Assembly (NCBI GenBank): GCA_030618545.1
Contig: JAUXDH010000001.1
Location: 3,247 to 67,246, forward strand
Direction: 5' to 3'
Length of the DNA stretch: 64,000 nucleotides
From: Chlorobiota bacterium
GTDB taxonomy: Bacteria; Bacteroidota; Bacteroidia; Bacteroidales; F082
Numbering within the stretch: position 1 is the first letter of the stretch; the number at the start of each line of letters is the position of its first letter. This document shows, piece after piece, positions 1 to 35,280 of the stretch. A model generated the notes under the pieces. The model was not told the origin of the DNA, made no database searches, and was given only the letters and a program-made list of their open reading frames with translations. The translations under genes were made by a program, and so were the position numbers.

Positions 1-754
1 TTTTGTAATAAAAATCACTGCCATCCCCCAAAAGCGTCAGGACAAGACCATGTTTGATCCTGGAAACCTCAGCTTCATTCCTGCTGAGCCAGGTAATGGA
101 ACCAATGGTTACAGGAATAAACAAAAACCGATAAGAGTAATTATTCTTTTTTTCACTTAACTGTTTAGCCAGATACGCGGAAACGGCAATGCCTGAAAGA
201 TTATCGTTTGCAAGCGACGGATGGCAAATATGTGTAGATATCAACACCTCCTGTTTCGTTGATCCTTCGATGTAATATTCTCCGTAAGTAAGTGACCCTG
301 GTTTAAGAGTTGAATCAATCATTACTTCGTACATCTCATCCTTCAGGTTCTCTAGTTGGGTATGTGAAACACAAAAACCCCAGGTCAGGTTGTGGTAAGA
401 TGTCCGGTAGGGTATCCACTCGGGTTGGTCCGGCAAAGAATAAAGGTGATCTTTCAATTCAGCAAGACCAACTTTCTTTTGAATGGGAATGCTGTAATTC
501 AGCACATGGAGATTAGAATTTTTAAAGTTGATGATTTTCTCACCTTTGCTGTTCTTTACCCATGCATCCCGGATATTCCACTCCATAGGGACTTCCCAAT
601 CAAACGCTTTGGTACCGCTCGGCACCTCAGTAACCTTCAAAGGAATCACTTCAGAAATAAGTGACAATGTCTGCCTGACACCTTCTCCCGTAATGCTTCT
701 GGGAATTGGATAAAGCTTTTTGATGAGGTCGTATATCTGCTGACCGTTAATCAC
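1..754 (-). CDS. DUF4910 / aminopeptidase-like (M28-fold) protein typical of polysaccharide loci; the C-terminal part lies beyond the window start
   Basis: Absent from the ORF track because it leaves the window. I translated the minus strand by hand from GTG (752-754), the first start codon after the in-frame TAA of the upstream gene at 779-781. The frame is open to position 1: VINGQQIYDLIKKLYPIPRSITGEGVRQTLSLISEVIPLKVTEVPSGTKAFDWEVPMEWNIRDAW...STHICHPSLANDNLSGIAVSAYLAK...FLFIPVTIGSITWL. The PI.RSITG.G and HP.LANDN.SG strings match my recollection of the COG4310/DUF4910 family. Confidence 0.7.
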   Translation of the reverse strand, partial: MINGQQIYDLIKKLYPIPRSITGEGVRQTLSLISEVIPLKVTEVPSGTKAFDWEVPMEWNIRDAWVKNSKGEKIINFKNSNLHVLNYSIPIQKKVGLAELKDHLYSLPDQPEWIPYRTSYHNLTWGFCVSHTQLENLKDEMYEVMIDSTLKPGSLTYGEYYIEGSTKQEVLISTHICHPSLANDNLSGIAVSAYLAKQLSEKKNNYSYRFLFIPVTIGSITWLSRNEAEVSRIKHGLVLTLLGDGSDFYYK

Positions 755-778
755 TTTCGTCTGTTGGCAGTGTAAATA

Positions 779-2011
779 TTAAAATACTTGATTTTGTGGA
801 ACAAATATCACGAATTGTCCTCCCCATTCCCTGATATAAGATAGCTGATTGCTGATCTCTTCCTTCAGGTTCCATGGAATTATAATTACGTAATCAGGTT
901 TGTATTTCCTTATTTCTGATTCATCCACAACGGGAATATGGCTCCCCGGTAAATATTTGTTTTGCTTGTGTGGCGAAGCATCCACAACAAATTGCACAAG
1001 GTCTGTACCCTTGATACCGCAATAATTGAATAAGGTGTTTCCTTTTGCGGCCGCGCCGTATCCGACAATTTTTTTGTCTTTTTTCTTTTCGTCAATCAAA
1101 AAAGTCCAGGTATCGTATTTAATCTTGTCAATCTTCTCCTGGAATCCCTTGTAATAGTTAATTTGATCAATTCCTGCTTCTATTTCTTTTGCAATCAAAG
1201 CGCTTACATTGGGGGAGATTTCCTTTGTATGATCCTCCGGATGTTTGGCAAAAATCCTGAGTGATCCTCCATGCGTTGGAACCAACTCTACGTCAAACAT
1301 CTCCAAACCCTGGCTCTCAAAGATTCGTTTTACAGTATAAAAAGAGAGATAGGAAAAATGCTCATGGTAAATGGTATCGAAAAGACAGTCCTCGGCCAGC
1401 CTGAGAAAATGGGGAAACTCCATTGTGATCACACCATCATCTTTCAGTGCAATCTTCATACCCTTTACAAAATCATTGATGTCAGGTACGTGAGCCAATA
1501 CATTGTTGCCAAGGATAAGGTCGGCCTTAATATTGTTGTCTGCAAGTTCGGATTGTGCGAAATCGGTACCAAAAAAATCGACAATAGTTTCTATCCCCTT
1601 TTCAAGAGCTGCTTTTGCGGTGTTGGCAGTAGGATCAATGCCGAGAACAGGTACTTTTTTTTGTTTGAAATACTGGAGCAAATATCCATCGTTTGAGGCA
1701 ATTTCAATAACCTGCGAGTTTTCATCAAATCCGAACCTTTCAATCATCATTTCCACATATCTCCTTGAATGCTCCAGCAAAGAGGTAGAGAAAGATGAAA
1801 AATAGGTGTACTCCGCATCAAATATTTTGTCAGCTTTCTCCATTTCATCCACCTGTACAAGGAAGCAATTATCGCAGACGAATATTTTCAAAGGGAAATA
1901 GGGTTCCGGTTCATGCAGTTGATGATCTGAAAGCATGGCATTGGAAATGGGCGAGAAGTCCAGATCGGCAAATACCTGTTTAAGTTCCGTATTACAATGT
2001 CTGCATTTCAT
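779..2011 (-). CDS. SAM-dependent NDP-hexose C-methyltransferase (TylCIII/NovU-like, zinc-ribbon N-terminus)
   Basis: 410-aa ORF. N-terminal Cys4 ribbon (CRHC...CDNC). SAM-binding block VIEIASNDGYLLQYF..VLGIDP. Long C-terminal domain as in sugar C-methyltransferases. Confidence 0.8.
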   Translation of the reverse strand: MKCRHCNTELKQVFADLDFSPISNAMLSDHQLHEPEPYFPLKIFVCDNCFLVQVDEMEKADKIFDAEYTYFSSFSTSLLEHSRRYVEMMIERFGFDENSQVIEIASNDGYLLQYFKQKKVPVLGIDPTANTAKAALEKGIETIVDFFGTDFAQSELADNNIKADLILGNNVLAHVPDINDFVKGMKIALKDDGVITMEFPHFLRLAEDCLFDTIYHEHFSYLSFYTVKRIFESQGLEMFDVELVPTHGGSLRIFAKHPEDHTKEISPNVSALIAKEIEAGIDQINYYKGFQEKIDKIKYDTWTFLIDEKKKDKKIVGYGAAAKGNTLFNYCGIKGTDLVQFVVDASPHKQNKYLPGSHIPVVDESEIRKYKPDYVIIIPWNLKEEISNQLSYIREWGGQFVIFVPQNQVF

Positions 2012-2050: not shown

Positions 2051-3301
2051 CTAATAGATGTATCTGAAATCGAATACCTTTTTCTTCGTGATCTTTTCTT
2101 TGTTGTTCTTAAATTCTTTCCATCCCGTAAGGATAACTACATTCTCAACATTTTGAAGCAGCGAATCCAGATCTTCAAAGTATTTGATATCAATATCAGG
2201 GTATTCCGTCTTAAATGCTTCGTTAGCCAACGGATCGTATGCAGAGAGGTTGGTAAAACCTTTTTCTATAAGCTTTACAATAATATCTTTGGCAGGGGTG
2301 ATGCGCACATCGTCGGACTCCGGTTTGAAAGACAATCCGAGAATTCCAATAGGAGCATCCTTTTCCAGTTCCGACTCAATCTTACCAACAAGGTGATCTT
2401 TTATTTCATCATTGATCCTGAGGTTCCCACTCAGCACCGAAGTATCTATTCCGTTAGCCCTTGCGATGGCATCCAGTGCCTGGGTGTCTTTTGGAAGGCA
2501 GTAACCTCCGTAACCACAACCCGGATAGACGTAAGAGGACATCGAAGCCGGCTTACCTGACCATCTTTTGTCTTCATGCAGTATCCTGAAAGAAGATGGT
2601 ACATCTATGCCTCCAATATTATCAGCAATCATCGACATTTCGTTGGAGTAACTGATCAGGGTTGAGAGTAATGTGTTGGACAGGTATTTGATGAATTCCG
2701 CCGAATTGTAACTGACATTATGAATGGGAGCGCCGAAGGGTTCATACAGTTGTTGAAGAATCTGTCTTGATTTTTCATCCTCAACACCAATCACCAAACG
2801 ATCGGGTTCAATAAAGTCTTCCCAGCAATAACCTTCGCGCAGGAATTCAGGATTGGAGGCAAAACCAAAAGCACGATCCAAACCTGAAATTTTTTCTTCA
2901 ACATAGGGGATCACCCTCTTCGATAGTGTTGAGGGAGGTACTGTGGATTTTACTATAAGGACTTTAAAGCTGCCTGAATCAACAGCAATAATCTGGTCAA
3001 TGGCTGCAAGAAGATGTGAAAGGTCTGCACTGCCATCTGATGAAGCCGGTGTGCCGACGCAAATAAAAATCGCTTCACTCTGTTTTATTGCATCATCCAG
3101 TGAAACATCGAGGAAGAACTTGGTTCCGGATGTTTCTTCGAGGATGTTTTTCAGATGTGGCTCATGGAAAGGAATTTCAAAGTTTTTCAATAAATCTACC
3201 CTTTCTCTGTTTATATCGATACCAAAGGTTTTAAAACCTTTTTTGGCGAACCCCAAACCGGTGGTTAATCCAACAAAACCCAATCCAATGACTGTGATCA
3301 T
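2051..3301 (-). CDS. Nucleotide-sugar 6-dehydrogenase (UDP-glucose/GDP-mannose dehydrogenase family)
   Basis: 416 aa. N-terminal Rossmann motif MITVIGLGFVGL. Catalytic Cys block GYGGYCLPKDT. 4-nt overlap with the upstream gene. Confidence 0.9.
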   Translation of the reverse strand: MITVIGLGFVGLTTGLGFAKKGFKTFGIDINRERVDLLKNFEIPFHEPHLKNILEETSGTKFFLDVSLDDAIKQSEAIFICVGTPASSDGSADLSHLLAAIDQIIAVDSGSFKVLIVKSTVPPSTLSKRVIPYVEEKISGLDRAFGFASNPEFLREGYCWEDFIEPDRLVIGVEDEKSRQILQQLYEPFGAPIHNVSYNSAEFIKYLSNTLLSTLISYSNEMSMIADNIGGIDVPSSFRILHEDKRWSGKPASMSSYVYPGCGYGGYCLPKDTQALDAIARANGIDTSVLSGNLRINDEIKDHLVGKIESELEKDAPIGILGLSFKPESDDVRITPAKDIIVKLIEKGFTNLSAYDPLANEAFKTEYPDIDIKYFEDLDSLLQNVENVVILTGWKEFKNNKEKITKKKVFDFRYIY

Positions 3302-4446
3302 AGCAATTGTCCGTTATTGATCCTTAAAAACTGCAAGTACCTTGAAATGCCTTCATTTACAAAGATGGAGGGTTCATAATTCAACATTTTCCGGGCTTTA
3401 TCAATCCTGGGACATCGCCTGTTTGGATTGTCGGTCATATAATGTTTATCGTCGGATATTTTGAAATCCACCTTACCCTGGTAACCATAAATCTCTTTTG
3501 CATTTTTTTGAAAGAGCCCTGCAAATTCTGCAACAGAGATCTCAGGTTTGTCAATACCGATGTTGAAAACATCCAGCTTCCCATGCAGCAAAATCTTTAA
3601 ATATCCTGTAATTGCATCGGCAATGTAACAGAATGTCCGGGTTGGTTTTCCGTCTGAAAGCATTACCAGGTCTCTTCCCTCGTGAACTGCTTTGGCAAAA
3701 TCAGCCGGCAATCTTTTGTCTTCGATATTCATACCGGGCCCGTAGTTGTTGAAGGGGCGGGCGATGGTTATCGGAATATTGTATTTATGGTGAAAAACAT
3801 AACAGAGGGTTTCACCATATCTTTTTGCCTCGTCGTAGCATGCGCGCGGTCCCATGGTAGCCACATTGCCACGGTAATCCTCTGAAGTAGGGATGAATTC
3901 CGGAAGGGGGTCACCGTAAATCTCGCTGCTGCTGAAGAAAATGAAACCGGTAATATTTTTCTCTTTGTAAAAATCAAGCATTCGGCGCAGACCTGTTACA
4001 TTGGCATCCATGGTTTCAATAGGGTAGATGCGGTAAAAAATCGGGGAAGCGATAGATGCCCCATGTATAATCAAGTTGGCATTTTCCGCATCCGCGACAT
4101 CTTCAAGCCTGTCTTCAATTACATCGAATTCCTTGAGGATAATATGGTCATTGTTTTCAACCAGTGTATCCAGCCAACCCTTTGTCCCGGTGAGAAAGTT
4201 TTCCAGTGCAATGACTTTTTTTATCTGTAATTCCCCGGCATAATGTGCAAAAAACTGCATGAAATAGTAGCCCAGGAAACCGCCACATCCTGTGATCAGG
4301 ATAGTGGCATCTTTCATTTTCATCCTTTCTTCCGCCGACAGCTTATCCAGGATGTAAGCCATGTCTTCGGTAAGAATTCGATTTTTATTCACTGATTGTT
4401 GGTTATAGCTGTTCTTGTAAGATGAGTTGTTTACCAGGTTTTCCAT
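3298..4446 (-). CDS. Extended SDR, NDP-uronate decarboxylase (UXS/ArnA-C-terminal)-like
   Basis: 382 aa. Rossmann motif ILITGCGGFLGYY. Catalytic YDEAKR resembles the YDEGKR of UDP-xylose synthases rather than the YSxSK of CDP-glucose 4,6-dehydratase. Confidence 0.75.
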   Translation of the reverse strand: MENLVNNSSYKNSYNQQSVNKNRILTEDMAYILDKLSAEERMKMKDATILITGCGGFLGYYFMQFFAHYAGELQIKKVIALENFLTGTKGWLDTLVENNDHIILKEFDVIEDRLEDVADAENANLIIHGASIASPIFYRIYPIETMDANVTGLRRMLDFYKEKNITGFIFFSSSEIYGDPLPEFIPTSEDYRGNVATMGPRACYDEAKRYGETLCYVFHHKYNIPITIARPFNNYGPGMNIEDKRLPADFAKAVHEGRDLVMLSDGKPTRTFCYIADAITGYLKILLHGKLDVFNIGIDKPEISVAEFAGLFQKNAKEIYGYQGKVDFKISDDKHYMTDNPNRRCPRIDKARKMLNYEPSIFVNEGISRYLQFLRINNGQLL

Positions 4447-5204
4447 GGAGGGTTACCACTGTCCCAGATTTCTTCCAGCACATTCTTGTCACGCAATGAA
4501 TCCATGCTTTGCCAGAAATGGTCATGCTTGTATGCTGAGAGTTTGTTTTCCTTTGCCAGATTTTCCATCGGTTCTCTTTCCCATACCGATGAATCCAGTT
4601 CGATATAATCAAATATTTCAGGCTCAAGCACAAAAAAACCGCCGTTGATCCAGGCAGAGTCTCCCCTTGGTTTTTCACGGAAATTGGTAATCAGATCCGA
4701 TTCATGATCAAAATTAAAGGCACCATACCTTCCCGGTGGCTGCACTGCCGTTAAGGTAGCGTAAGTGTCTTGTGCTTTATGAAATTCCAGCAGTTTGTTG
4801 AAATCCACGTCACTCACACCATCCCCGTAAGTCAGTAAAAAAGTTTCGTTTTCAACATATTTTTGAACCCGCTTTATCCTGCCGCCTGTCATGGTGTCCT
4901 GCCCGGTATCGACAAGAGTAATCTTCCACGGTTCTACATTGTTGTTAAGCACTTCAATACTGTTATCCTTCAGGTCAATCTTCATGTCCGACTGCATCAT
5001 GTAATAGTTCATAAAGAATTCCTTGATGATATACCCTTTGTAGCCCAGGCAAATGATAAACTCATTAAAACCATGGCTGGAATACATTTTCATGATGTGC
5101 CAGAGAATAGGCATTCCACCGATCTCCACCATGGGTTTGGGTAAAACGGTGGTTTCTTCACTCAATCGCGTTCCGAAGCCACCGGCGAGGATAACAGTTT
5201 TCAT
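4431..5204 (-). CDS. rfbF: Glucose-1-phosphate cytidylyltransferase
   Basis: 257 aa. MKTVILAGGFGTRLSEET..PKPMVEIGG.PILWHIMK.Y is the classic RfbF N-terminus. Confidence 0.9.
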   Translation of the reverse strand: MKTVILAGGFGTRLSEETTVLPKPMVEIGGMPILWHIMKMYSSHGFNEFIICLGYKGYIIKEFFMNYYMMQSDMKIDLKDNSIEVLNNNVEPWKITLVDTGQDTMTGGRIKRVQKYVENETFLLTYGDGVSDVDFNKLLEFHKAQDTYATLTAVQPPGRYGAFNFDHESDLITNFREKPRGDSAWINGGFFVLEPEIFDYIELDSSVWEREPMENLAKENKLSAYKHDHFWQSMDSLRDKNVLEEIWDSGNPPWKTW

Positions 5205-5230
5205 CTTAAATGGTTTTGATCATCAAACTA

Positions 5231-5977
5231 CTAATATAAATCTTTTAAAGGATCTTTCTCCATTACCCTGACTACTTTATCCACATCCGAAGGAATATCA
5301 ACACTGTATGTTTCATATTCGGTTTCTACAATGCGTATTTTTCTCCTGTTCTCGATAAATCTCAGCATATCCACTGATTCAATAATTTCGAGAGGAGTGG
5401 ATTCCAGCCTGGCATAATCCTGCAATGATTCCCTGGTAAAAGGAAATACACCACCCTGAATATAGTAAGGTATTACCTTATCTCCCATAAATTTTGACGG
5501 GATGGGTTCACGAGAAAACACTATGGCATCATGATTGGGGTCGAATACCACCTTTACTTCATGAATGTTTACGGCCTCATCATAAGCTGCCTTTCGTGCC
5601 AGGTTTACACTGGAAATTGTCGGATCATCGATCAAAGGCTGAATAGCCATTTCAATCATTTCAGGAAAAACAAGTGGTTCGTCTCCCTGTAAGTTTACAA
5701 TAATGTCAGCATCGTCAACTTTTAACGCTGCCTGTGCAACACGGTCGCTGGCACGACGCACATCATCAGTTGTCATAATTGCTTTGCCGCCAAATCCTTC
5801 CACCACATCTATTATTTCCTGGTTTGGGGTAGCAACATATACCTCATCAAGCATTTTACTCATGGAAGCCCTTTTGTATACGTGCTCAATCATTGGCTTG
5901 CCGCAGATATCTGCGAACGGTTTTTGCATGAACCTGTAAGATCCCAGTCTGGCTGGAATGATGCAAATTATTCTCAT
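5231..5977 (-). CDS. KdsB-like CMP-ulosonic acid cytidylyltransferase, paralogue 2
   Basis: 248 aa. IIPARLGSYRF..KP..ICGKPMIEHVY, GGKAIMT, ASDR, LQGDEP and SREPIPS parallel E. coli KdsB (IIPARYASTRLPGKP...). Confidence 0.85.
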   Translation of the reverse strand: MRIICIIPARLGSYRFMQKPFADICGKPMIEHVYKRASMSKMLDEVYVATPNQEIIDVVEGFGGKAIMTTDDVRRASDRVAQAALKVDDADIIVNLQGDEPLVFPEMIEMAIQPLIDDPTISSVNLARKAAYDEAVNIHEVKVVFDPNHDAIVFSREPIPSKFMGDKVIPYYIQGGVFPFTRESLQDYARLESTPLEIIESVDMLRFIENRRKIRIVETEYETYSVDIPSDVDKVVRVMEKDPLKDLY

Positions 5978-6624
5978 AGTGTATTCAAATATTCGTTAAA
6001 CGATTTAAAATCTTCTATCTGGTTTTTCTCCTGCTTAATGGCATCGCTGGTTGTGTATCTTCCAATAAATGTGATGCCATTCGTCCTGGCTGCTTCGATG
6101 TCGGTTGGCGCGTCTCCAATAAAAACCACTTCTGAAGCAGCATAGCCATACCTTTCCAGGATCCCTTTTACATGGTTTGTTTTCTTCTCAGGTGATCCAT
6201 GAACCTCTTTGAAAAAAGGTGTGAGGCCTTTTCTTTCCAGAATTATATCTATTTCTTCTGTTGGTGTTCCTGTCGAAATAAATAAATCGTAATCCTGATG
6301 GTAGGATTTGATGAATTGATCAACTCCCTTAATATATGCTGAACCAACAACTTTTTCCAATACCATTTCAGAAAACTGTTCAGCTAAATCAGCTATTTTT
6401 TGCTCATCAGCTTTTTCACCAAGGTATTCCTTCTGGTAGATCCGAAACTTTTCATAACGTGAAATTCCACCATTTGATTCATGATGGCGGACCACTTTGT
6501 TTTCAACATCCTTCCCATAGGGCCTGTACATTTCAGCGAAAGCCTCGGTTTTTACATTCAGGGAATCTGATATAACACCATCGAAATCAAAAATGATGGC
6601 TTTAAATCTACTCATGCCAGGCAA
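5974..6624 (-). CDS. HAD-superfamily phosphatase (subfamily IA-like)
   Basis: 216 aa. Motif I is FDFDGVISDS and there is a C-terminal GDAPTD motif. ATGA overlap with the downstream gene. Confidence 0.85.
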   Translation of the reverse strand: MPGMSRFKAIIFDFDGVISDSLNVKTEAFAEMYRPYGKDVENKVVRHHESNGGISRYEKFRIYQKEYLGEKADEQKIADLAEQFSEMVLEKVVGSAYIKGVDQFIKSYHQDYDLFISTGTPTEEIDIILERKGLTPFFKEVHGSPEKKTNHVKGILERYGYAASEVVFIGDAPTDIEAARTNGITFIGRYTTSDAIKQEKNQIEDFKSFNEYLNTL

Positions 6625-7258
6625 TAACTGTTATCGGACATCCATCCACCTGATCAATCATCAATGGCAAAGCCATTACTTTTACTATACTTTCCGGTAG
6701 ATGCTGAAGATCCATGTCTTCAATAATTAGAATATCGTTTTTGTTCAGAAACTCCCTGTGGGCCTCTCTGCCAAGCATTCTGTTCTGATAACCGGATAGA
6801 GAGATAAAATCAAATCCAACAGCTTTAAGTTTTGGGCAATGTATTCTTAAACGTTCAGCAAGTTCAGGCGCTAATCCGGGGTTGTTGTTCCAGTACTTTT
6901 CCTGGCCCCTGAATCTTTTAAAGCCTGTTCTGATCAGCAGGAAATCGGTGTTTTTTGGAATAGATTCAAGTTGGACAGCCAAATCAATGACTTCTTCGGC
7001 ATCGGCCTGATAATCCAGCAAAAAAGGTTGAGTAAACTCCCAGAAACCGGCATCGTAATCATTGATGGTTTTGCCTTGATCACCAAAATGCTTTGGGAAA
7101 TCAATATGTGTACCTACATGATTTGGCAAATGAAGAAGGGTTGAATTAGAGCTGTCACCTTTGCTGATAGAACTTCGCTGCTGAATATCAATCGCCTTAT
7201 CACCACCATACTGGGGTGTATCATTATTGATAAAGTATGACAGATAGGTGCAATTCAT
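6608..7258 (-). CDS. Putative-cyclase / kynurenine-formamidase-fold metal hydrolase
   Basis: 216 aa. HVGTHIDFPKH matches the HxGTHxDxPxH signature of the cyclase family. Confidence 0.75.
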   Translation of the reverse strand: MNCTYLSYFINNDTPQYGGDKAIDIQQRSSISKGDSSNSTLLHLPNHVGTHIDFPKHFGDQGKTINDYDAGFWEFTQPFLLDYQADAEEVIDLAVQLESIPKNTDFLLIRTGFKRFRGQEKYWNNNPGLAPELAERLRIHCPKLKAVGFDFISLSGYQNRMLGREAHREFLNKNDILIIEDMDLQHLPESIVKVMALPLMIDQVDGCPITVIAWHE

Positions 7259-8175
7259 CGGAAGTTGAAGATATATTCAATCGCATCGATTTTACCTTCT
7301 TTTTGCAGTTCTTCGTAATTGTCGTAAATCTGTTCAAGTATTCCCTGACCCAATTCGTGGTAATAATTAAGGATATATTTTTTTGCAACAACAGGCTTGA
7401 AAACATAAGGCGTCATATTGTAATGACCACTCATGTGTTCATCACTGTATTCGATCTCGATCTTGTCCTGAAACATCTCTTTGATCATTGACAGCAGGTC
7501 GCGGATTCTTAATGATTTGGAACCGGTAATCATGACATGGGAATTTTTGTAATTCTTTGTAAGAATTTCAACACTGGCACGGGCAGCATCTATCACATGG
7601 ATGTATTCCCTGATCTCCTCACCGTTTCCCAGCCTCACAACTTTCTTATCCAGTAAAGCCTGCCGGATCATGATGTTGATAAAGTTGAAATGATTCGCCC
7701 GTGGACCGTACAATGATCCATACCGCAGAATGGTGTAATCCAAATCATACTTATCATGGTAGTTGTTGATCAGCAGCTCGGAGGCTTGTTTACTGCTTCG
7801 GTAGAAAGAACCATGATCGCTATAAACGTAAACAGTGCTCCCGTAAAGGAAACGCTTAACATTAAATTCACGGCATGCATCCAGGATGTAGGTTGTGCTG
7901 AGGATATTTATTTCCACGGTTTTCACCGGGTTATCCTGTGCTTCTTTAATGTCAGCTATTGCCGCAAAATGGTAAACGAATAACATCCCATCAACTGCTT
8001 TTCTGATGGCCTCCCTGTCGGTGATGTCGCCAACGATCATAATCTGATCTTCCCTTATATGCTTTGATTTTTTCTGATCAAAGATGTACACTTCATATCC
8101 CTCATCAGATAGTTGATCCGCCACATGGCTTCCCAAAAATCCTGAACCTCCAAAAACGATTACTTTTTCACTCAT
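7255..8175 (-). CDS. NAD-dependent epimerase/dehydratase (extended SDR)
   Basis: 306 aa. Motifs VFGGSGFLGSH and YRSSK (YxxxK). Confidence 0.85.
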   Translation of the reverse strand: MSEKVIVFGGSGFLGSHVADQLSDEGYEVYIFDQKKSKHIREDQIMIVGDITDREAIRKAVDGMLFVYHFAAIADIKEAQDNPVKTVEINILSTTYILDACREFNVKRFLYGSTVYVYSDHGSFYRSSKQASELLINNYHDKYDLDYTILRYGSLYGPRANHFNFINIMIRQALLDKKVVRLGNGEEIREYIHVIDAARASVEILTKNYKNSHVMITGSKSLRIRDLLSMIKEMFQDKIEIEYSDEHMSGHYNMTPYVFKPVVAKKYILNYYHELGQGILEQIYDNYEELQKEGKIDAIEYIFNFR

Positions 8176-8198
8176 AACAGAAGTATTAAGTGGTAAAT

Positions 8199-8975
8199 TT
8201 AGTATTTGTCAATGTATTCTTTCAGCAGGATATCATCCTGTATCTTATCAATCACATTATCAAGATCGGCCTGTGTATCCACAGCATAGGTGTTCTCTTC
8301 AGTGAAGATCATTTTTACCTGCATCCCGTTTTCAAGGATGCGCATCATGTCAACCGATTCAACAATTTCGAGTGGCGTTTGCTCCATGGAGTTGTACTCC
8401 AGCAAAAAATCCCGCTCATAAGGGATAACACAAACCTGTTTAAGCATGGGCACATCAGTAACTCCCTTTTTCCTGGAAGGAATCGGTTCCCTGGAAAAAT
8501 ACAACGCGTTGTTGTTTTTATCCACAACAACCTTTACTTCATTCGGATCCTCATGTTCTTCAACAGTCTCCATCACTGCCATAAGGTTGGATATTTTTAT
8601 CTCCGGATCTTCTATCAATGGTTTTATAGCATCCTCGATCATCCCCGGCGTAACCATGGGTTCATCACCCTGGAGCATGACTACGATGTCTACCTTCATT
8701 CCAGTTGACTGTTCTATCTTTTCCAGCGCCTCGGCAGTTCTGTCGGAAGCCCGTTCATGAGTGTCAGCAGTCATGATGGCTTTGCCGCCAATACTTTCTA
8801 TATAATCAAAGATTTCTTCGTCACAAGTGGCTACATAAACCTCGTTCAGCGTCTCGCACATTTTACTGCGGATGTAGCAGTGCCCGATCATGGGTATTCC
8901 CAGGATATCGGCCATAGGCTTGTTAGGAAACCTTGATGAAGCTAACCTGGCAGGTATTATTCCTATTATATTCAT
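8199..8975 (-). CDS. KdsB-like CMP-ulosonic acid cytidylyltransferase, paralogue 1
   Basis: 258 aa. Motifs IIPARLASSRFPNKP..ILGIPMIGHCY, GGKAIMT, ASDR, LQGDEP, SREPIPS and TPLEIVESVDM. Confidence 0.85.
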   Translation of the reverse strand: MNIIGIIPARLASSRFPNKPMADILGIPMIGHCYIRSKMCETLNEVYVATCDEEIFDYIESIGGKAIMTADTHERASDRTAEALEKIEQSTGMKVDIVVMLQGDEPMVTPGMIEDAIKPLIEDPEIKISNLMAVMETVEEHEDPNEVKVVVDKNNNALYFSREPIPSRKKGVTDVPMLKQVCVIPYERDFLLEYNSMEQTPLEIVESVDMMRILENGMQVKMIFTEENTYAVDTQADLDNVIDKIQDDILLKEYIDKY

Positions 8976-9706
8976 CTTCTTAATTTCGATAATTCAGATT
9001 TCGCTTTTACACCAAGGAAGAGGGTGTCGAGGCTAAAGGCAAGAAAGTTGTATCCCTGCTCAATCTTTTCATTAAGTAATTCAACATCGGGTTCGATTAC
9101 GTGATAACCAATCAGTTTATCATGTTTTTTAACGATCTCCTCATACTTATTCAGCACTACTTTTACATCTTCATCATTGTATTTGCCGGGTTTCCCCATG
9201 GATCCTGAAAGGTCGTAAGGTCCAATGAATGTTCCATCTATTCCGTCAAGCTGAATGATATCCTCCAGGTTTGCCACTGCATCAACATGTTCAATTTGGG
9301 CGATCAGTACAATCTCTTTTGCTTTCTGATTTTTATACTCTTCGAATCCCAGCCCGTATTTTTGGGCCCTTGCCAATCCCACGCCCCGTTTGCCTTCAGG
9401 AGGATATTTCACCGCATCAATTGCTTTTAAGGCTTCTTCTTTCGTGTTGACCATTGGAACGATGATGCCATCTGCTCCTGCATCCAGTACCCTTTTGATG
9501 ATTCTGGTATTGTTTTCACCTACCCTTACAAAAGCTTTGAGACCTTTGGACTGAATGGTGGCAATGAGTTGTTGTGCTTCAAAGTAATCTGTAACTGAAT
9601 GCTCCATATCCACGCATAGCCAATCAAATCCGGCTTCAGCCAGAATCTCCGGCACGGATGTGTGATTGAGCGTAATCCAGCTTCCTATAGTTACCTTTTT
9701 TGCCAT
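8972..9706 (-). CDS. HpcH/HpaI-family class II (pyruvate-dependent) aldolase
   Basis: 244 aa. GFDWLCVDMEH, FVRVGENN and GADGIIVPMVNTKEEA parallel HpaI/GarL motifs. Confidence 0.85.
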   Translation of the reverse strand: MAKKVTIGSWITLNHTSVPEILAEAGFDWLCVDMEHSVTDYFEAQQLIATIQSKGLKAFVRVGENNTRIIKRVLDAGADGIIVPMVNTKEEALKAIDAVKYPPEGKRGVGLARAQKYGLGFEEYKNQKAKEIVLIAQIEHVDAVANLEDIIQLDGIDGTFIGPYDLSGSMGKPGKYNDEDVKVVLNKYEEIVKKHDKLIGYHVIEPDVELLNEKIEQGYNFLAFSLDTLFLGVKAKSELSKLRR

Positions 9707-9811: not shown

Positions 9812-9836
9812 ATATCAAAAAGCCTAATCAGGCTTT
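9812..9836 (-). terminator. Possible intrinsic terminator overlapping the stop codon of the regulator gene
   Basis: On the minus strand: AAAGCCT-GATT-AGGCTTT followed by TTGATAT. This is a 7-bp stem, a 4-nt loop and a T run that is partly inside the stem. The stem has only 3 GC pairs. Confidence 0.35.
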
Positions 9837-10361
9837 CCACACGAGTAAAAGCTCGTCTTTGCTTTTACCCGAAATGAATTCTTTCAACTCATCCTGCGAC
9901 AGGATGATATAGCGAATCTTTCTTTTAATCTTTGCTTCAGACTTTTCCACCAGTTTCAGTAAATACCTTTTATCAATCCCTTTTCCCACAAACCAGAGAT
10001 CGATAACCTTACTGTCTTTACCTTTAGCCAATTCACCTACCAGGTAAACTGTATTTAGCTCACCTAATTTGGATGTAACCTTACTGATTATTTTATCAAG
10101 GCCGATATGTTTCATCAGAAGATTATGGATATCGGTGTAGAGAGGATGGCTGGTATTGGCCATGTATATTTTTTTGTTTCCCTCATGCACTGCAACAAGT
10201 AAACCTGCTTTTGCAAGACGATTCAATTCCAGACGTATGGCATTTGTGGATTCACCAAACTCTGATTCCAGTGAACGTAACCAGGCTTTGTTATTGCTGT
10301 TGAGGAAAAATTTAAGCAATAAATTTATACGAGTTTTGGATGTAATGAGTGTTTCGAGCAT
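9828..10361 (-). CDS. Winged-helix (ArsR-like) transcriptional regulator
   Basis: 177 aa. N-terminal TSKTRINLLLKFFLN....WLRSLESEFGESTNAIRLELNRLAKAGLL is a wHTH pattern common in Bacteroidota. Confidence 0.7.
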   Translation of the reverse strand: MLETLITSKTRINLLLKFFLNSNNKAWLRSLESEFGESTNAIRLELNRLAKAGLLVAVHEGNKKIYMANTSHPLYTDIHNLLMKHIGLDKIISKVTSKLGELNTVYLVGELAKGKDSKVIDLWFVGKGIDKRYLLKLVEKSEAKIKRKIRYIILSQDELKEFISGKSKDELLLVWKA

Positions 10362-10677: not shown

Positions 10678-11487
10678 ATGAAGAGACTGGGTAAGAAAAT
10701 TCTTGGGAAGATCAAACGCCATTCGGGGATTTTCATATCGTTGAAAAGGCAAAATAAGCAGCTAAAGAAATTTAAGAATCTCCATCAGGGTCAGGATTGT
10801 ATTATTCTGGGAGCCGGGCCTTCCCTCAATGAAATTCCGCATGATTTCCTCAGTAAAATGACAGTGATTGGGACCAACCTGTCATTTAAATATCATAAAC
10901 CTGATTACTGGGTTGTGATAGATGCGCAATATTCCTGGATGAACGAAGGAAGGGAATTGTGCCGGGACAACAACATCCCTGCATTCATCAACTGGTTGTG
11001 GGCACCACAAATACCTGAGACATTTTATCCTAATGAAATCAGTTTACATCCCTATCAAATCACAACTGACCAGAGTCCTGACAACAAACAGCTTCGGACA
11101 AACCTTACCAAAACATTTAACAATCCTGTACAGATTGAAAAAAGGGGTTTTACCAGTGTAAACAGTGTGGTTCCGGAAGGAGCTATTCCACTTGCCCTTT
11201 ATATGGGATTTAAACGAATTTTTCTCGCAGGTGTAGATTTTTATATTCCAACAGACGGAACATTCCATTTTATGGAAGACACGAAGGAAGACGAGGATAA
11301 AATAGACAAACTACGGAGTCGTCTTAAAAAGGACGACAAATCAAATAAAGACCTTTTTGATATTAAAAGATGGCCTATTGAACTTATTGGAGAATCCAAA
11401 AACAGCCACAGGATATTTAATCTAAGTGAAAAGAGTACGGTAAAAAACATACCCAAGATTAACTATCGCGATGTTGATTTTTCCTGA
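10678..11487 (+). CDS. DUF115 (MptE/Maf-like) protein, possible GT42-like ulosonic-acid transferase
   Basis: 269 aa. DCIILGAGPSLNEIPHDFL...VIGTN resembles the (A/N)GPSL start of Maf/DUF115 proteins and of Campylobacter CstII (IIAGNGPSLKEIDY). Confidence 0.6.
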   Translation: MKRLGKKILGKIKRHSGIFISLKRQNKQLKKFKNLHQGQDCIILGAGPSLNEIPHDFLSKMTVIGTNLSFKYHKPDYWVVIDAQYSWMNEGRELCRDNNIPAFINWLWAPQIPETFYPNEISLHPYQITTDQSPDNKQLRTNLTKTFNNPVQIEKRGFTSVNSVVPEGAIPLALYMGFKRIFLAGVDFYIPTDGTFHFMEDTKEDEDKIDKLRSRLKKDDKSNKDLFDIKRWPIELIGESKNSHRIFNLSEKSTVKNIPKINYRDVDFS

Positions 11488-11509: not shown

Positions 11510-13417
11510 TTATTCTACCGGGAAAATTTTCCTGTTCATCAAAAAGTCAATCACTACCTGGGCATTCTTTTCCTTCTCTGCCGGATTTAACTCCAGTTCA
11601 GGATTCGCAGGGATATCGTAATTCATATCTATTCCCGGTAAATATTTTAATTCGCCTGATTCGGCTTTTTCATAAAGACCGTATTCATCATTTTTACGGC
11701 AGAATTCCAGATCCGCATCAAAATATATCAGGTTAAATTTCTTGCTGCCCACAATTTCTGCGACCTGTTGGCGAACAGATTCGCTGGGAGAAATAAATGA
11801 ACAAATTGTGATGATCCCCTGGTCGTTCAATAATTTGCAGATGTGGGCAACCCTTCTCTGATGTTCTGCCCTGTCGGCCGGTGAATAATCAAGCTCTCTT
11901 GAAAGTCCCATCCTTGTCGACTTTCCATCCAGCAATACTGCTGTGGCACCAAGGTCAAACAACTGGCGTTCCAGCGAATAGGCCAGCTCATTTTTTCCTG
12001 AGCCGTGGAGGCCGGTTATCCAGATAGTCTGTCCCTTCTGGTTATACCTTTTTACCCGCTCTTTACTTTTTATCAGGCTTTCACCCTGGACGATTTTCTC
12101 TTTATCCGTTCCTGTGATATGGACCTTCAATTCCTTGCCTGTAAACCGGTCACGGATCATTCCAACTGCACAGGTGTTGTGGGTAACCGGGTCAATAAGC
12201 ACAAACGATCCTGTGTTCCTGTTCTTTCTGTAAGGATCAAAGAAAAGCGGCTTGTTGGTGGTGATGACCACCCTGCCAATCTCATTTAACTCAAAATGAT
12301 CGACATCTGATTTCTCCAGGGTATTCACATCAATTCTGTACTGTATGCTATCAATCCTTGCTTTGGTAGTATTTGAGGAGTGTTTTATAAAAAATTGGGT
12401 ATTTGGATCCATTGGGTTTTCATCCATCCAAACAAGGTCGGCTTCAATATGCCGATCGATTTTTGGAAGATTTTCGGGATGTATGATCATTTCACCTCTC
12501 GAAATATCGATCTCGTCTTCAAGTGTCACCGTAACAGCCTGTGGCGGATAAGCATATTCAACATCACCATCATAAGTGCTTATGGCTGCCACTTTTGAGG
12601 TTTTCCTAGAGGGCAGCGCCATCACTTCATCACCCTGCCGGATGACTCCTGAAGCAACAGTTGCAGCAAAACCACGAAAATGAATGGAAGGTCGGGAAAC
12701 ATATTGGACGGGATAGCGCAGGTCTTCAAAATTTCTGTCACTGCTGATGTACACGGTCTCCAGGAATTCAAGCATACTTTTACCGTGATACCAGGGCATC
12801 CTATTAGATATATCTACAACATTATCTCCTTTTAAAGCTGACAGGGGAATAAATGTAATATCAGGAATATCCAGTTGGGTAACAAAGTCCTTGTAGTCTT
12901 TGCAAATACTATCAAACACTTCCTTATCGAAATCAACAAGGTCCATCTTGTTTACGGCAAGAACTACATGTTTGATACCCAGTAAAGAAACAATAAAGGT
13001 GTGCCGTTTGGTCTGAGTGATGACCCCATGACGGGTGTCCACGAGGATAATGGCAAGGTTGGCTGTAGAGGCGCCTGTTACCATGTTGCGGGTGTATTGT
13101 TCATGACCCGGTGTGTCGGCAATAATGAACTTTCGCTTTGCAGTTGAGAAATAGCGGTAGGCTACATCAATGGTAATCCCCTGTTCGCGCTCAGCTTTCA
13201 ATCCATCAAGTAAAAGGGCATAGTCGATATCCTCACCGGCATGACCTTCTTTTTTGTTGTCACGATGAAGAGCATCAAGCTGGTCTTCGTAAAGTTTTTT
13301 ACTGTCGAATAGTAATCTTCCTATTAATGTAGACTTACCGTCATCAACTGAACCTGCAGTCAACAATCGCAAGAGGTCCTTTTTCTGGTCCTGATCAAGA
13401 AAATCCTTAATATCCAT
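11510..13417 (-). CDS. cysNC: Bifunctional-type sulfate adenylyltransferase subunit 1 fused to an APS-kinase-like domain (CysNC/NodQ-like)
   Basis: 635 aa. GTPase motifs [17 protein letters not shown] and NKMD. The C-terminal 174 aa (from [15 protein letters not shown], 12034 downward) aligns by eye to E. coli CysC. Confidence 0.9.
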
Positions 13418-13603: not shown

Positions 13604-14536
13604 ATGAAAAGTAAAGTTTTGGCATCACCCACTACTTTCGGTCAGGTTAGTGTTGAACCTATCGAAATATTGACTGATAGTGGATTCGAACTTGTACGGA
13701 ATACTTATGGAAGAACATTGAAAGAAGAAGAAGTCATTGAGTTGGCTCAGGATTGTAAAGGGATAGTCGCGGGCGTTGAACCCCTGACTAAAAAAGTAAT
13801 GGATTCCTGTCCACATTTGAAATGCATTAGTCGTGTAGGCGTAGGCATGGACAACGTGGATCTTGGGTATGCAAAAACCAAAGGGATCACTGTGACCAAT
13901 ACACCCTTTGGTCCTACACAGGCCGTTGCCGAATTGACACTTGCCCTGGCCATGTCATTGTTACGGAAAATTCCAAAAATGCACATTAACCTTAAAAATG
14001 GTATCTGGAAAAAAGAAACAGGTAATCTCCTGTCAGGCAAAACAATCGGTGTGGTAGGGTTGGGACGGATTGGCAAAGCTACCGCCGGAATGTTCAAAGC
14101 CCTAGGTAATGAAGTAATCGGCTATGATCTGTATCCGGATACTGATTGGGCAGCGGAAAACGACATTCGGATCACAGGATTGGATGATCTTTTGGAGAAT
14201 GCTGATGTCATTACACTTCATCTTCCGGGAAGCAAAGACAAAAAACCGGTGTTGTCAAATCGTGAAATAAAAAATATGAAACCAGGAGCATTTCTGGTAA
14301 ACGTCTCCAGGGGTGGGGTGGTAGAAGAAGAAGCGCTTTATCAGTCACTTGCCGGGGGGCATCTCTCAGGGGCAGCTATTGATGTATTTGCTGTGGAACC
14401 TTACCAGGGTCCGTTTAGCCAACTGGAAAATGTGATCATCACACCACACATTGGCTCTTATGCTGCTGAGAGTAAATTACAGATGGAAATTGACGCGGTG
14501 AATAACCTTGTGGATGTGCTCAAAAACAGGGCTTAG
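13604..14536 (+). CDS. D-isomer-specific 2-hydroxyacid dehydrogenase (PGDH/GyaR-like)
   Basis: 310 aa. NAD motif [11 protein letters not shown] and the catalytic region SRG...TPHIGS. Confidence 0.85.
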
Positions 14537-15441
14537 AAATACCCTTCTCTTTTCTTTTGTTCCATCGATGCTTCCTGGTCGAAATCGATAACACGCGTGG
14601 TCCTTTCGGATTTGGTGACAGTCATCATTTCTTGTACAATCTTTTCAATTGTATCTGCTTCCGATTCAATCGCACCTGTCAATGGATAACAGCCCAGTGT
14701 CCTGAACCTGACCATCCTCATTTTTGCCTGATCACGCAGTTCCTGTGGCATACGCTCATCGTCAGCAAGGATAAGATTACCTTCGATATCAACAATTGGT
14801 CTTTCTTTAGAATAATAGAGGGGGACGATAGGAATGTTTTCCAGGCGGACATATTGCCAGATATCCAGTTCGGTCCAGTTTGAAAGCGGAAAAACACGGA
14901 TAGATTCTCCCCTATGCACCTTTGCATTATAAAGATTCCAAAGCTCGGGACGTTGATTTTTTGGATCCCACTGATGGAATTTATCCCTGAAAGAGTAGAT
15001 TCGTTCTTTTGCTCTTGATTTTTCTTCATCACGCCGGGCACCTCCGAAAGCAGCATCGAATCTGTATTTATCAAGACCCTGGAGCAATGCCTGTGTTTTC
15101 ATGATATCAGTGTGAACCTTACTGCCATGGGTAAAAGGACCAACCCCGGATTCAAAACCCTCCTTATTATAATGAACTATAAGATCCCATCCTTTTTCTT
15201 TGGCATAGTTGTCACGGAATTCGATCATCTCACCAAACTTCCACTTGGAATCGATATGCATTAAAGGAAAGGGAACTTTACCGGGATAGAAAGCTTTTTC
15301 GGCAAGCCTGACCATCACTGATGAATCCTTACCTATCGAATAAAGCATCACAGGATTCTCAAATTCTGCGGCCACCTCCCTGATAATGTTTATCGATTCG
15401 GCTTCCAGCTCTCTCAGGTTGTTGATAGTATATAAATCCAT
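14533..15441 (-). CDS. cysD: Sulfate adenylyltransferase subunit 2
   Basis: 302 aa. The PAPS-reductase-fold N-terminus [32 protein letters not shown] is the typical CysD/NodP start. Confidence 0.92.
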
Positions 15442-20371: not shown

Positions 20372-20580
20372 GACCTTTTTTTTATAACCGGAAATAAATT
20401 ACTCCTCCTTGACGTCTGAAAGCTAATTAAATACAGATAATAAATACATATTGATGTGAGTATTTGATTCTTATAGGTTTAAAGTGATCTCTTTTAAGAT
20501 ATCTTAAACAAATCATATAATGAACTTTCCCAATTCATTTGAACCATGCAAGAAATCTGTACTTTTGGTTACGCACACAA

Positions 20581-33672: not shown

Positions 33673-35280
33673 TTATAAATCGTAATAAAACCTGCTGAGC
33701 GAGGTTCTTAACCCAAAATGAATAAACGAGGTGTTCACGGTTTCCCGATCATTGGTTGAATTTCTGTAAGTAAATCCCAGAGCAATATTAAGGTTATAGG
33801 CCGGGTTGATCAGCCAGCTAACAGTAAGATCATTGTAAATGACCGTTGTTGACAGGCCCTGTCCTACTTTAACGTCATAATCACTTACCCGGGTTGTATA
33901 AGGTTCGTAAATATTCTTTCCAAAGTTTTGGTCATCGTAATCCAGTCCATATCGGGCATATTGAAACTGGTATTTAAAATAGAAGCGGCGGTAATTATAC
34001 TTGATAAAGTTAACCGATTCCCAGAAGTTGGCACCAAGCGGATGGCCAACTGCCGCATTGTAATGTCCGTAGTTTGTAATCGTTTTCTCGTGTGCAAAAG
34101 TGTAAGGCCTCACCCAGTTGAACTCTGTCTGAAAAAAAAGATTCTTTACCCTGAACAGGTTGAAACTCTTAAACCCGAGTTGCCAGCCAAACTTATTTCC
34201 CCACCAGCCATTGTCGTCCGTGAACTCACTGAGTTTAAACTCGTCAAGAATTAACTGCCCGTAGAAGGTGCTGTGCTTGCCTGCGATAAAACTCATATTC
34301 AATCCTATCATGGCATTATCGGGAGATCCCATGGAAAACTCCACAGGCCGTAGAAAAATAATGGGATTGAGGTAGGTTACATCAAATCCCCTGTAACCCG
34401 TACTGTCCTGTGTTTGCCAGACAATAGTTTCAAAAATGCCTATGCTGAATCGTTTGGATGCTGCCCACGACAGGTAATGGGTGGTGGTCCATTTTTTTGC
34501 ATACCCCAGGTCGTCGCTCCATTTAAAGTTAATGTCCATCATCTGCGAATACAACACCATATAATTGATATGCCAGAATTTGGCAGTGATCTTCAGGAAA
34601 GGATAGTTGAATGCATTATCTGAAAGCAAAAGCGAACGGTATCCATCACCTATGAAGTTATTGTCGTAGCCCAGTTGAAAGTCAAAATATTTGCCGGCAT
34701 TAAATGCAATGTATCCGGAAGCATAAGCATAATCAAAGCCGTCTTCTTTGAAGCTTCTTACCATTCCCTGTCCGGGTACAACCCGGGTTACACGAATATT
34801 AGAATCCAGGTAGTTTACAAAAGAGGCCTGGTTTTCATAAAAGCTGGTATAAAATGAAAATCCTTTACCAATCTCTCCTTTGGCCTCAAATCCGCGGGTA
34901 TTGATAAACCGGGTTTTTTCCTCGTTTGATTCATACCCAACATCGAAGTTCATTAAAGGATTGATGGCAAACCAGAATTTTTCCTTATAAAGTGTGACCA
35001 CATCATCGTTGAGGAATTTATTCCATGCTTTCTGTTTCCATTTCTTTTCAATTGTTTTTTCGAGTCGATTTAGCTGCGTAAGGGAATCATAATTGGCAAT
35101 TTTCTTTATATCTCCAATCCTCCATGCCTGGATTGCGGTGTGGAACCGCGTTTTAGATGAATAGAGTGTGGATTGGACCTCCATGTCATAATCGCGGTTA
35201 AAGTAAGTGTAAAGGTTTTGGGCAGTAAAATCAGAAACAAAACCAAGTAAACAAAGTAATAAGAGCAGCCTGGACATCAT
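33673..35280 (-). CDS. Putative outer-membrane beta-barrel protein (family not recognised with confidence)
   Basis: 535 aa. Signal peptide MMSRLLLLLCLLGFVSDFTAQ. The sequence is rich in alternating aromatic/polar stretches and Gly/Tyr/Asn, and it sits beside gldH. Confidence 0.6.
   Translation of the reverse strand: MMSRLLLLLCLLGFVSDFTAQNLYTYFNRDYDMEVQSTLYSSKTRFHTAIQAWRIGDIKKIANYDSLTQLNRLEKTIEKKWKQKAWNKFLNDDVVTLYKEKFWFAINPLMNFDVGYESNEEKTRFINTRGFEAKGEIGKGFSFYTSFYENQASFVNYLDSNIRVTRVVPGQGMVRSFKEDGFDYAYASGYIAFNAGKYFDFQLGYDNNFIGDGYRSLLLSDNAFNYPFLKITAKFWHINYMVLYSQMMDINFKWSDDLGYAKKWTTTHYLSWAASKRFSIGIFETIVWQTQDSTGYRGFDVTYLNPIIFLRPVEFSMGSPDNAMIGLNMSFIAGKHSTFYGQLILDEFKLSEFTDDNGWWGNKFGWQLGFKSFNLFRVKNLFFQTEFNWVRPYTFAHEKTITNYGHYNAAVGHPLGANFWESVNFIKYNYRRFYFKYQFQYARYGLDYDDQNFGKNIYEPYTTRVSDYDVKVGQGLSTTVIYNDLTVSWLINPAYNLNIALGFTYRNSTNDRETVNTSFIHFGLRTSLSRFYYDL

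Follow-up and report, generated by a model that had tools for sequence, protein, structure and literature searches.

To our knowledge, all of the established routes to keto sugar acids activated with cytidine monophosphate (CMP), namely those of Kdo (3-deoxy-D-manno-octulosonate), Kdn (3-deoxy-D-glycero-D-galacto-nonulosonate), and the sialic, legionaminic and pseudaminic acids, form the acid with a KdsA/NeuB-type synthase that depends on phosphoenolpyruvate (PEP). When genomes are searched for such sugars, these synthases are generally what is looked for. While examining a 64,000-nucleotide stretch of DNA from a Chlorobiota bacterium (GTDB lineage Bacteroidales, F082; assembly GCA_030618545.1, contig JAUXDH010000001.1, positions 3,247 to 67,246), hereafter the window, we analyzed an operon in which a class II aldolase of the HpcH/HpaI family is followed by a KdsB-like cytidylyltransferase (KdsB1), a GalE-like SDR, a cyclase-fold hydrolase, a HAD phosphatase and a second KdsB-like cytidylyltransferase (KdsB2). 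We consider it moderately likely that this operon, together with a nearby dehydrogenase and a DUF115 protein, makes and uses a CMP-activated 2-ulosonic acid other than Kdo. The module is real and is probably a new variant of CMP-ulosonic-acid biosynthesis, with a different C-C bond-forming enzyme and a distinct transferase clade.

The CMP-Kdo pathway (KdsD/KdsA/KdsC/KdsB, and KpsU) resembles the module in that a keto sugar acid is dephosphorylated by a HAD-superfamily enzyme and turned into a CMP glycoside by a CTP_transf_3 enzyme, and the residues of KdsB and KpsU that bind cytidine triphosphate (CTP) and Mg are identical in the sister clade that KdsB1 and KdsB2 form in a neighbour-joining tree. 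Unlike that pathway, the module has a class II aldolase in the place of KdsA, with no enzyme of KdsA type found among the scanned ORFs of the window, and its phosphatase is of HAD type IA rather than the type IIIA of KdsC. Moreover, the tyrosine that contacts O5 of Kdo is absent from the module pocket, and the module is accessory rather than a housekeeping function of lipopolysaccharide synthesis. The nonulosonic acid pathways (NeuB/NeuA, PseI/PseF, LegI/LegF, and the Kdn-9-phosphate synthase and HAD phosphatase of Bacteroides) are likewise found in polysaccharide loci, end in a CMP activation step, and are often followed by putative transferases of the DUF115/Maf or LIC12162 type. Their C-C bond, however, is formed by PEP-dependent enzymes of the NeuB family, and a tblastn search with NeuB found no homologue in the 64-kb window. 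NeuB/NeuA sets do adjoin the aldolase module in 12 of the 33 full loci described below, and where NeuB is present it is accompanied by a NeuA-type transferase of its own.

The operon was pointed out in an earlier note on this DNA, and the coordinates and order given there for the six open reading frames (ORFs) agree with the ORF list and translations. All of the motifs that it quoted are found in the translations, and a Pfam profile search, which was among the checks it proposed, confirmed all six domain assignments. Tight coupling of the six genes is also borne out by their overlaps, with 4-nt overlaps of the ATGA type at three junctions according to the ORF coordinates. A further overlap, at the cyclase/HAD junction, is probably shorter than the 17 nt given for it: that length requires a TTG start at 6624, whereas the in-frame ATG at 6615, which is the HAD start in the gene call of an identical contig (L004), gives an overlap of 8 nt (ATGAGTAG). 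The claim that a PEP-dependent synthase is missing is supported within the window, where neither a DAHP_synth_1 nor a NeuB domain was found in the ORFs scanned, including those of suitable size. The pathway was also said to be undescribed, and no paper in the searchable literature describes the module or links an HpcH aldolase to a cytidylyltransferase. One candidate description, from Bradyrhizobium (PMC3899966), proved on reading to be unrelated, and the single mention of LIC12162 that was found had no bearing on the module.

The aldolase matches PF03328 (2.2e-36; 125.6 bits against a gathering threshold of 25) over residues 7-228, the full TIM-barrel domain, and its best PDB match is YfaU (2vws, 1e-39). 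In the alignment with YfaU, H36, R61, E139 and D165 fall on its His, Arg, Glu and Asp, which we take to be numbered H49, R74, E153 and D179 in that enzyme. The four residues of the module aldolase are invariant in 24 homologues. In HpcH aldolases the His and Arg are catalytic and the Glu and Asp bind the metal (PMC7610986). The catabolic enzymes YfaU/RhmA, GarL and HpaI thus share the fold and the residue set of the module aldolase, at about 35-40% identity by eye, and one might suppose that the operon is a salvage or catabolic unit in which the aldolase cleaves an imported 2-keto-3-deoxy sugar acid as RhmA, GarL and HpaI do. The physiological roles known for the HpcH/HpaI (PF03328) family are catabolic (PMC7610986), and HpaI, GarL and RhmA are the best NCBIfam matches. 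The scores nevertheless lie far under every equivalog cut-off (HpaI, 193.6 against 368.8; GarL, 159.9 against 393 and 156.2 against 406.75; RhmA, 154.1 against 441). No transporter, dehydratase or kinase was seen among the scanned neighbours, the genes are set in a Wza/Wzc/UpxY locus with nucleotide-sugar genes, and Wzx, Wzy and glycosyltransferases occur in related loci, all of which makes a catabolic role scarcely credible. Whereas the catabolic enzymes degrade 2-keto-3-deoxy acids, members of the module clade are linked with cytidylyltransferases in loci for glycan synthesis, which implies the synthetic direction.

This tie was evident when species-representative genomes were scanned with clade-specific peptide patterns and the loci found, here given L numbers, were annotated. 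Linkage was counted in 45 loci whose aldolase was at least 44% identical, 33 of them with enough flanking sequence to be treated as full loci. A CTP_transf_3 gene lies no more than two genes from the aldolase in 42 of the 45 and is present in every one of the 33 full loci. These loci come from all major classes of Bacteroidota and from at least eight other phyla or classes (Ignavibacteria, Nitrospirota, Planctomycetota, Omnitrophota, Saccharibacteria, Marinimicrobia, Campylobacterales and Alphaproteobacteria). Among Bacteroidota of marine and fresh waters the module is widespread. The aldolase clade is set apart by a gap in identity, from at least 44% inside to at most 40% outside. Conservation of the gene order, another check proposed for the operon, was found to be strong across phyla for the aldolase-cytidylyltransferase pair, and the more distant HpcH proteins of 35-40% identity, from Chloroflexota, Gammaproteobacteria and other groups, in no case have a linked cytidylyltransferase. 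The alternative of a catabolic aldolase in a gene order that is not conserved, raised in the earlier note, is therefore not supported. Of the module proteins the aldolase is conserved best, and more than 120 clusters (at 90% identity clustering) in public metagenomes are at least 72% identical to that of the window. Three independent metagenomic contigs (L088-L090), with about 80% aldolase identity, share the whole locus of the window in synteny, down to the DUF115 gene and the dehydrogenase on the opposite strand. Because of this synteny and the pairing in 42 of 45 loci, the arrangement is not due to chance.

The same survey changed the boundaries of the module. Every one of the 33 full loci has an SDR or GFO oxidoreductase, while 27 have a 2-Hacid_dh protein, 17 a HAD protein and 15 a cyclase. 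The recurrent set therefore consists of the aldolase, the cytidylyltransferase, a 2-hydroxyacid dehydrogenase like 3-phosphoglycerate dehydrogenase (PGDH), an oxidoreductase of the SDR or GFO family, and a phosphatase, and not of the six genes that had been taken as the unit; its dehydrogenase is represented here by the gene at 13604-14536, outside the stretch first delimited. Nor can the cyclase be a defining step, given its count and its replacement in L002 and L003 by a protein like 6-phosphogluconolactonase (Pgl; TIGR01198, 98 bits), which lies between the SDR and HAD genes. Pgl-like proteins or fragments also occur in L019 and L030, where the cyclase is missing. Replacement of the cyclase by a Pgl-like protein suggests that this slot provides an accessory opening of a lactone or phospholactone.

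A second architecture, seen in L021, L024, L027, L029, L032, L034-L036 and L038, comprises the aldolase, KdsB1, the 2-hydroxyacid dehydrogenase, an IolG-like GFO oxidoreductase, a GmhA-like SIS isomerase, a variable slot and a cyclase. The variable slot holds either a phosphatase of the inositol-monophosphatase family or a classical SDR with a TIGR04425 protein ('AroB-related sugar phosphate phospholyase (cyclizing)'), and the architecture is suggestive of a variant that eliminates phosphate (deoxy) or of a carbocyclic one. Compact and extended forms are found in cultured strains. A plasmid of Acuticoccus sp. I52.16.1 (L087, NZ_CP094833.1, 40686-45138) carries a five-gene operon of aldolase, NeuA-like transferase, PGDH, HAD and oxidoreductase, and is the sole useful plasmid match, nearly all others being catabolic-type HpcH proteins of less than 40% identity. 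In the chromosome of Sulfurimonas sp. HSL3-2 (L091, CP147917.1) a radical SAM/SPASM enzyme and a methyltransferase are inserted in the module, and cultured Lutibacter (sp. Hel_I_33_5) and Sulfurimonas have fuller versions of it. The phage collection gave only two weak Staphylococcus phage matches, and hence no link to phages.

Both cytidylyltransferases of the window match CTP_transf_3 (KdsB1, 3e-47; KdsB2, 8e-44), and they are 50% identical over 254 residues, in keeping with the paralogy and the 40-50% identity that had been estimated by eye. The CTP loop (R10, S14, R15 and K19), the QGDEP motif and the second Mg-binding aspartate (D233 of KdsB1) are kept in both, and the roles of the CTP- and Mg-binding residues have been described for KdsB (PMC3149649). 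It could be argued that KdsB1, KdsB2 or both are capsule CMP-Kdo synthetases of the KpsU kind that work on housekeeping Kdo, and that the aldolase and its neighbours form an unrelated branch for an acyl or pyruvyl substituent or for another sugar. KdsB1 has KpsU as its best PDB match (1gq9, 3e-44), it exceeds the cut-offs of the NCBIfam subfamilies PRK13368 and NF003952 and marginally that of the TIGR00466 equivalog (160.7 against 155.2), and both proteins are annotated publicly as CMP-Kdo synthetases. KdsB2, however, scores below TIGR00466 (134.8) and below PRK13368. In E. coli KdsB, Tyr185 together with Gln98 binds the C5 hydroxyl of Kdo, and 5-deoxy-Kdo is not a substrate (PMC12199768). The equivalent position holds Tyr in five of five bona fide KdsB proteins, but in KdsB1 it is Ile (38 of 39 sequences) and in KdsB2 Phe (all five), while the Gln98 equivalent is conserved. 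We take E. coli Tyr185 to correspond to the tyrosine in the HxG[IL]Y motif. Other positions of the C-terminal sugar-binding domain that are invariant in KdsB have changed as well: ATDD has become ATC in KdsB1 and ATP in KdsB2, GT has become AS, and the glutamate of LEQLR is Asp in both (VDMMR in KdsB1 of the window).

In a tree built by neighbour joining only, with four PDB references, KdsB1 and KdsB2 form one clade that stands apart from KdsB and KpsU and is sister to KpsU and the KdsB proteins of Acinetobacter, Coxiella and Haemophilus. Within this clade KdsB1 splits into two subclades that match the two module architectures. The possibility that one copy is a housekeeping KdsB, raised in the earlier note, is thus not supported for either by clade or sugar pocket, both having lost the tyrosine for the Kdo 5-hydroxyl. 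Reading the pair as CMP-Kdo synthetases would also leave the near-obligate linkage to the aldolase unexplained, and in L036 a KdsB-like gene that retains the Kdo-binding tyrosine is found in the same locus as KdsB1. We regard that explanation as very unlikely. The tyrosine-keeping gene of L036 is flanked by the genes of an HMGL-like protein (PF00682, 514 aa, of the DmpG-fold pyruvate aldolase type) and a HAD_2 phosphatase. This group (3082-5963), found 4 kb upstream of the HpcH-KdsB1 genes and non-homologous to them, may be another aldolase-based route to an ulosonic acid. Both transferase types therefore coexist in that locus, along with a second, non-homologous triad of pyruvate aldolase, cytidylyltransferase and phosphatase.

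KdsB2 is a separate conserved orthogroup, smaller than the aldolase family, with orthologues at 71-75% identity in L002, L010, L019 and L049 that are usually preceded by a second GalE-like SDR; in L092 and L093, KdsB1, an SDR and KdsB2 are consecutive. This recurrent arrangement resembles the scheme of EpaA and EpaB (and of the Aci/Ela enzymes) of Acinetobacter baumannii, where an extra CTP_transf_3 enzyme and oxidoreductases yield an epimeric, re-activated ulosonic acid (PMC12053666). The two systems differ in that EpaA is a fusion of a NeuA-like domain and an aldo-keto reductase, EpaB is a classical SDR, and they act on pseudaminic acid, which a PEP-dependent synthase produces; no orthology to the module genes was detectable. 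The SDR of the window operon matches Epimerase (9e-48), and its nearest PDB entries are UDP-hexose/HexNAc 4-epimerases. It carries a GxxGxxG motif, an NAD-type Asp, an S-Y-K triad and a C-terminal R-x-Y-x-H-V-x-D motif, and across the window protein and 26 orthologues conservation is at least 95% at residues G9, G10, G12, D33, S113, Y125, K129, R189, Y191 and D196. We take the C-terminal motif to be typical of epimerases of nucleoside diphosphate (NDP) sugars, and to mark binding of an NDP-sugar rather than a sugar 1-dehydrogenase. The TDE signature of dehydratases is not visible in the SDR sequence. The SDR is probably an NAD-dependent epimerase or oxidoreductase.

The cyclase-fold protein matches PF04199 (7e-17; 62.5 bits against 23.1) and kynurenine formamidase (4cz1, 3e-12), and its HxGTHxDxPxH motif (H47, H51, D53, H57) together with D150, H167 and E180 is at least 95% conserved in 22 sequences. 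By analogy with KynB, the His and Asp residues of the motif, H167 and E180 are presumably the metal ligands. The protein scores far below the arylformamidase family TIGR03035 (71.3 bits, cut-off 223), and no tryptophan catabolism genes are found in the genomic context of its gene. The phosphatase (HAD_2, 7e-21) has all four HAD motifs, with D13, D15, T120, K148, D171 and D175 at least 95% conserved in 24 sequences, and falls short of the KdsC-type family TIGR01670 (20.4 bits, cut-off 106.95). Judging from these alignments, the catalytic residues of all six encoded proteins are intact.

The dehydrogenase upstream of the operon (2-Hacid_dh_C, 5e-53) has 3-phosphoglycerate dehydrogenases as its best PDB matches (1wwk, 8e-60), and it may be a housekeeping serA. 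Its odd position is kept, however, in the three syntenic loci L088-L090, and the proteins to which it is closest, at 45-47% identity, are the in-module dehydrogenases of other phyla (L039, L044, L047), so that a pathway partner of the operon is the probable reading. The module dehydrogenase has an N-terminal extension of about 270-290 residues in L007 (11555-13315), L031 (12411-14183) and L049 (11511-13289). This extension weakly matches CTP_transf_3 in L031 (4e-5) and L049 (2e-4) and has no Pfam match in L007. The weak match connects the function of the dehydrogenase with the nucleotide-linked acid; as a speculation, the extra domain could sense feedback or bind the nucleotide sugar.

The setting is a locus of the capsule or exopolysaccharide type in a marine Bacteroidota bacterium, with Wza, Wzc, a NusG/UpxY-like protein, genes for 3'-phosphoadenosine-5'-phosphosulfate and the DUF115 protein. 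Upstream of the operon lie, in order, a small protein without a Pfam match, the DUF115/MptE-like protein, cysNC, the PGDH-like dehydrogenase, cysD, the NusG/UpxY-like protein, a GFO oxidoreductase, Wzc and Wza. The DUF115 protein is a candidate transferase for the CMP-activated acid, a transferase role being established for Maf proteins. Its gene is kept in position in L004 and L088-L090, and the L089 orthologue has a faint match to CST-I, a sialyltransferase of family GT42. Elsewhere, LIC12162-family (PF27859) or uncharacterised proteins of 500-670 aa adjoin the aldolase and are candidate ulosonic acid transferases. The glycan of the locus is probably sulphated, because cysNC and cysD are embedded in it, and because cysNC and cysD also occur in the related loci L002 and L088-L090 and sulfotransferases in others (cluster c26, e.g. 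L012 15657-16694).

The genes of the recurrent set could also be arranged without an aldol step. In such a route, which is the main rival, the SDR or GFO enzyme would oxidize a sugar phosphate at C1, the cyclase-fold or Pgl-like hydrolase would open the lactone, the PGDH-like enzyme would oxidize the phospho-aldonate at C2, and dephosphorylation by HAD and CMP transfer would follow to give a non-deoxy 2-keto-aldonic acid, with the aldolase as an editor of C3 and C4 by retro-aldol and re-addition, or as a side branch. The Pgl-like protein in the cyclase slot of L002 and L003 points to a (phospho)lactone substrate and is well explained in this way, the PGDH-like type acts on phosphorylated hydroxyacids, and the SDR and GFO families include sugar 1-dehydrogenases (XylDh_Gfo6, IolG and Azf matches). 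The block of 2-hydroxyacid dehydrogenase, SDR, cyclase and HAD is also separable from the aldolase and KdsB in L091 and L092. Yet the aldolase and cytidylyltransferase are the tightest and most universal pair, even in L007 and L009 where most of the other block is missing, and a non-aldol route fails to explain why they are the invariant core. The aldolase is also the best-conserved protein of the module. Among solved structures the SDR is closest to NDP-sugar 4-epimerases, and the R-x-Y-x-H-V-x-D motif is retained in it. We also know of no precedent for an HpcH aldolase acting as an epimerase. An aldolase-free origin of the acid is accordingly unlikely in our view.

We therefore return to the aldolase-first pathway, in which every substrate, the sequence of the reactions and the nature of the acid are inferred. 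The aldolase would join C3 and C4 by adding the metal-bound enolate of a 2-oxoacid to an aldose or aldose-phosphate, and so replace the KdsA/NeuB synthase. Pyruvate as donor would give a 3-deoxy acid, as the earlier note proposed. Hydroxypyruvate, which could be made from 3-phosphoglycerate by the PGDH-like enzyme and a phosphatase, would give a 3-hydroxy acid, and the dehydrogenase would thereby gain a role; several HpcH aldolases accept hydroxypyruvate as nucleophile (PMC7610986). The HAD enzyme would then remove a phosphate, as do KdsC and the Kdn-9-phosphate phosphatase, or would dephosphorylate phosphohydroxypyruvate, and the cyclase-fold hydrolase, or the Pgl-like protein that fills its slot elsewhere, might open a lactone as an accessory step. 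KdsB1 would link the anomeric 2-hydroxyl to CMP, the GalE-like SDR would epimerise or oxidoreduce the acid, probably at the nucleotide level, and KdsB2 would activate the second, modified form. Finally, the DUF115 protein would transfer the acid to the sulphated capsule or glycan of the locus. Depending on donor and acceptor, the product may be a new acidic sugar, for example a 3-hydroxy (Ko-like), odd-chain or epimeric analogue of Kdo or Kdn.

Several points weigh against this pathway. The addition of pyruvate by an aldolase is thermodynamically reversible, unlike the reactions of PEP-driven synthases, and a driving force must therefore be assumed, either the consumption of CTP or the use of oxaloacetate as a decarboxylating donor. 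If the donor is pyruvate, the 2-hydroxyacid dehydrogenase has no obvious role in an aldolase-first scheme, and the set of dehydrogenase, lactonase, 2-hydroxyacid dehydrogenase and phosphatase also reads naturally as an aldolase-free conversion of a sugar phosphate to a 2-keto-aldonic acid. A kdsA gene is expected elsewhere in the genome, beyond the 64-kb window. In Planctomycetota and some Alphaproteobacteria the partner of the aldolase is NeuA-like and not KdsB-like, and the KdsB-like clade is therefore not obligatory. The assignment comes from sequence comparison, and all of its substrates are guesses.

Table 1. Positions of the operon genes and of neighbouring genes in the window
Feature	Position	Strand	Remarks
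Aldolase (ALD)	8972-9706	-	HpcH/HpaI class II; opens the operon and is the signature of the module
KdsB1	8199-8975	-	KdsB-like CMP-forming cytidylyltransferase; 4-nt ATGA overlap with aldolase, translationally coupled
SDR	7255-8175	-	Extended, GalE-like; separated from KdsB1 by a 23-nt gap
Cyclase-fold hydrolase	6608-7258	-	KynB-like, binuclear-metal; 4-nt overlap with SDR
HAD-IA phosphatase	5974-6615 (ATG, likely start) or 5974-6624 (TTG, mechanical ORF)	-	
KdsB2	5231-5977	-	Second KdsB-like cytidylyltransferase; 4-nt overlap with HAD
Glucose-1-phosphate cytidylyltransferase (CDP-glucose synthase)	4431-5204	-	Pfam; same operon
Second SDR, 382 aa	3298-4446	-	Pfam; same operon
UGDH-like dehydrogenase	2051-3301	-	Pfam; same operon
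C-methyltransferase, TylCIII-type	779-2011	-	Pfam; same operon
177-aa protein, labelled HTH	9828-10361	-	No Pfam match; directly upstream of the operon
MptE-like/DUF115 (Maf-type) protein	10678-11487	+	PF01973, 1.7e-10; divergent, upstream of the operon
cysNC (sulfate adenylyltransferase/APS kinase fusion)	11510-13417	-	
PGDH-like D-2-hydroxyacid dehydrogenase	13604-14536	+	2-Hacid_dh_C; 4 kb upstream of the operon
cysD	14533-15441	-	

The operon continues beyond KdsB2 with four further genes, separated by gaps or overlaps of at most 39 nt (Table 1). This quartet also follows the module in L088 and L089, and it forms a separate branch of cytidine diphosphate (CDP) hexose metabolism that apparently leads to a C-methylated (branched) CDP-sugar or to a CDP-uronate derivative. 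The CDP-glucose genes were considered as a necessary supply of the acceptor and rejected, as they are present in a minority of loci and usually have a dehydratase and epimerase of their own. A partial ORF (1-778, minus strand), aminopeptidase-like by eye only, leaves the window at its left edge. The 177-aa protein directly upstream of the operon has the look of a winged-helix regulator, by eye only. It is conserved in L012, L014, L027 and L035, where, with 40-47% identity, it heads related polysaccharide loci; the 3' end of its gene is overlapped by a hairpin that has a T-run (9839-9816). A promoter scan gave matches at chance level, and terminator-like matches fell within genes. Outside the locus are two proteins of 653 and 535 aa without a Pfam match (20539-22500, plus strand; 33673-35280, minus strand) and one of 947 aa with only a lamin-tail domain (30259-33102, minus strand).

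The broader proposal, which we regard as evenly balanced, is that the module contains the first anabolic class II aldolase of the HpcH/HpaI family, giving a PEP-independent route to a CMP-ulosonic acid that is installed on surface glycans by DUF115/LIC12162-type transferases. Since the module exists in cultured strains and, on a plasmid, in a compact form of five genes in one operon, the hypothesis can be tested directly. If true, the route would be invisible to genome mining based on the synthases, and 'KdsB' annotations in polysaccharide loci would have to be read differently. Stereoselective aldolases and permissive cytidylyltransferases would become available for glyco-engineering. The module would also provide the first biosynthetic role for the HpcH/HpaI family and reveal a new class of acidic surface sugars in abundant environmental bacteria.

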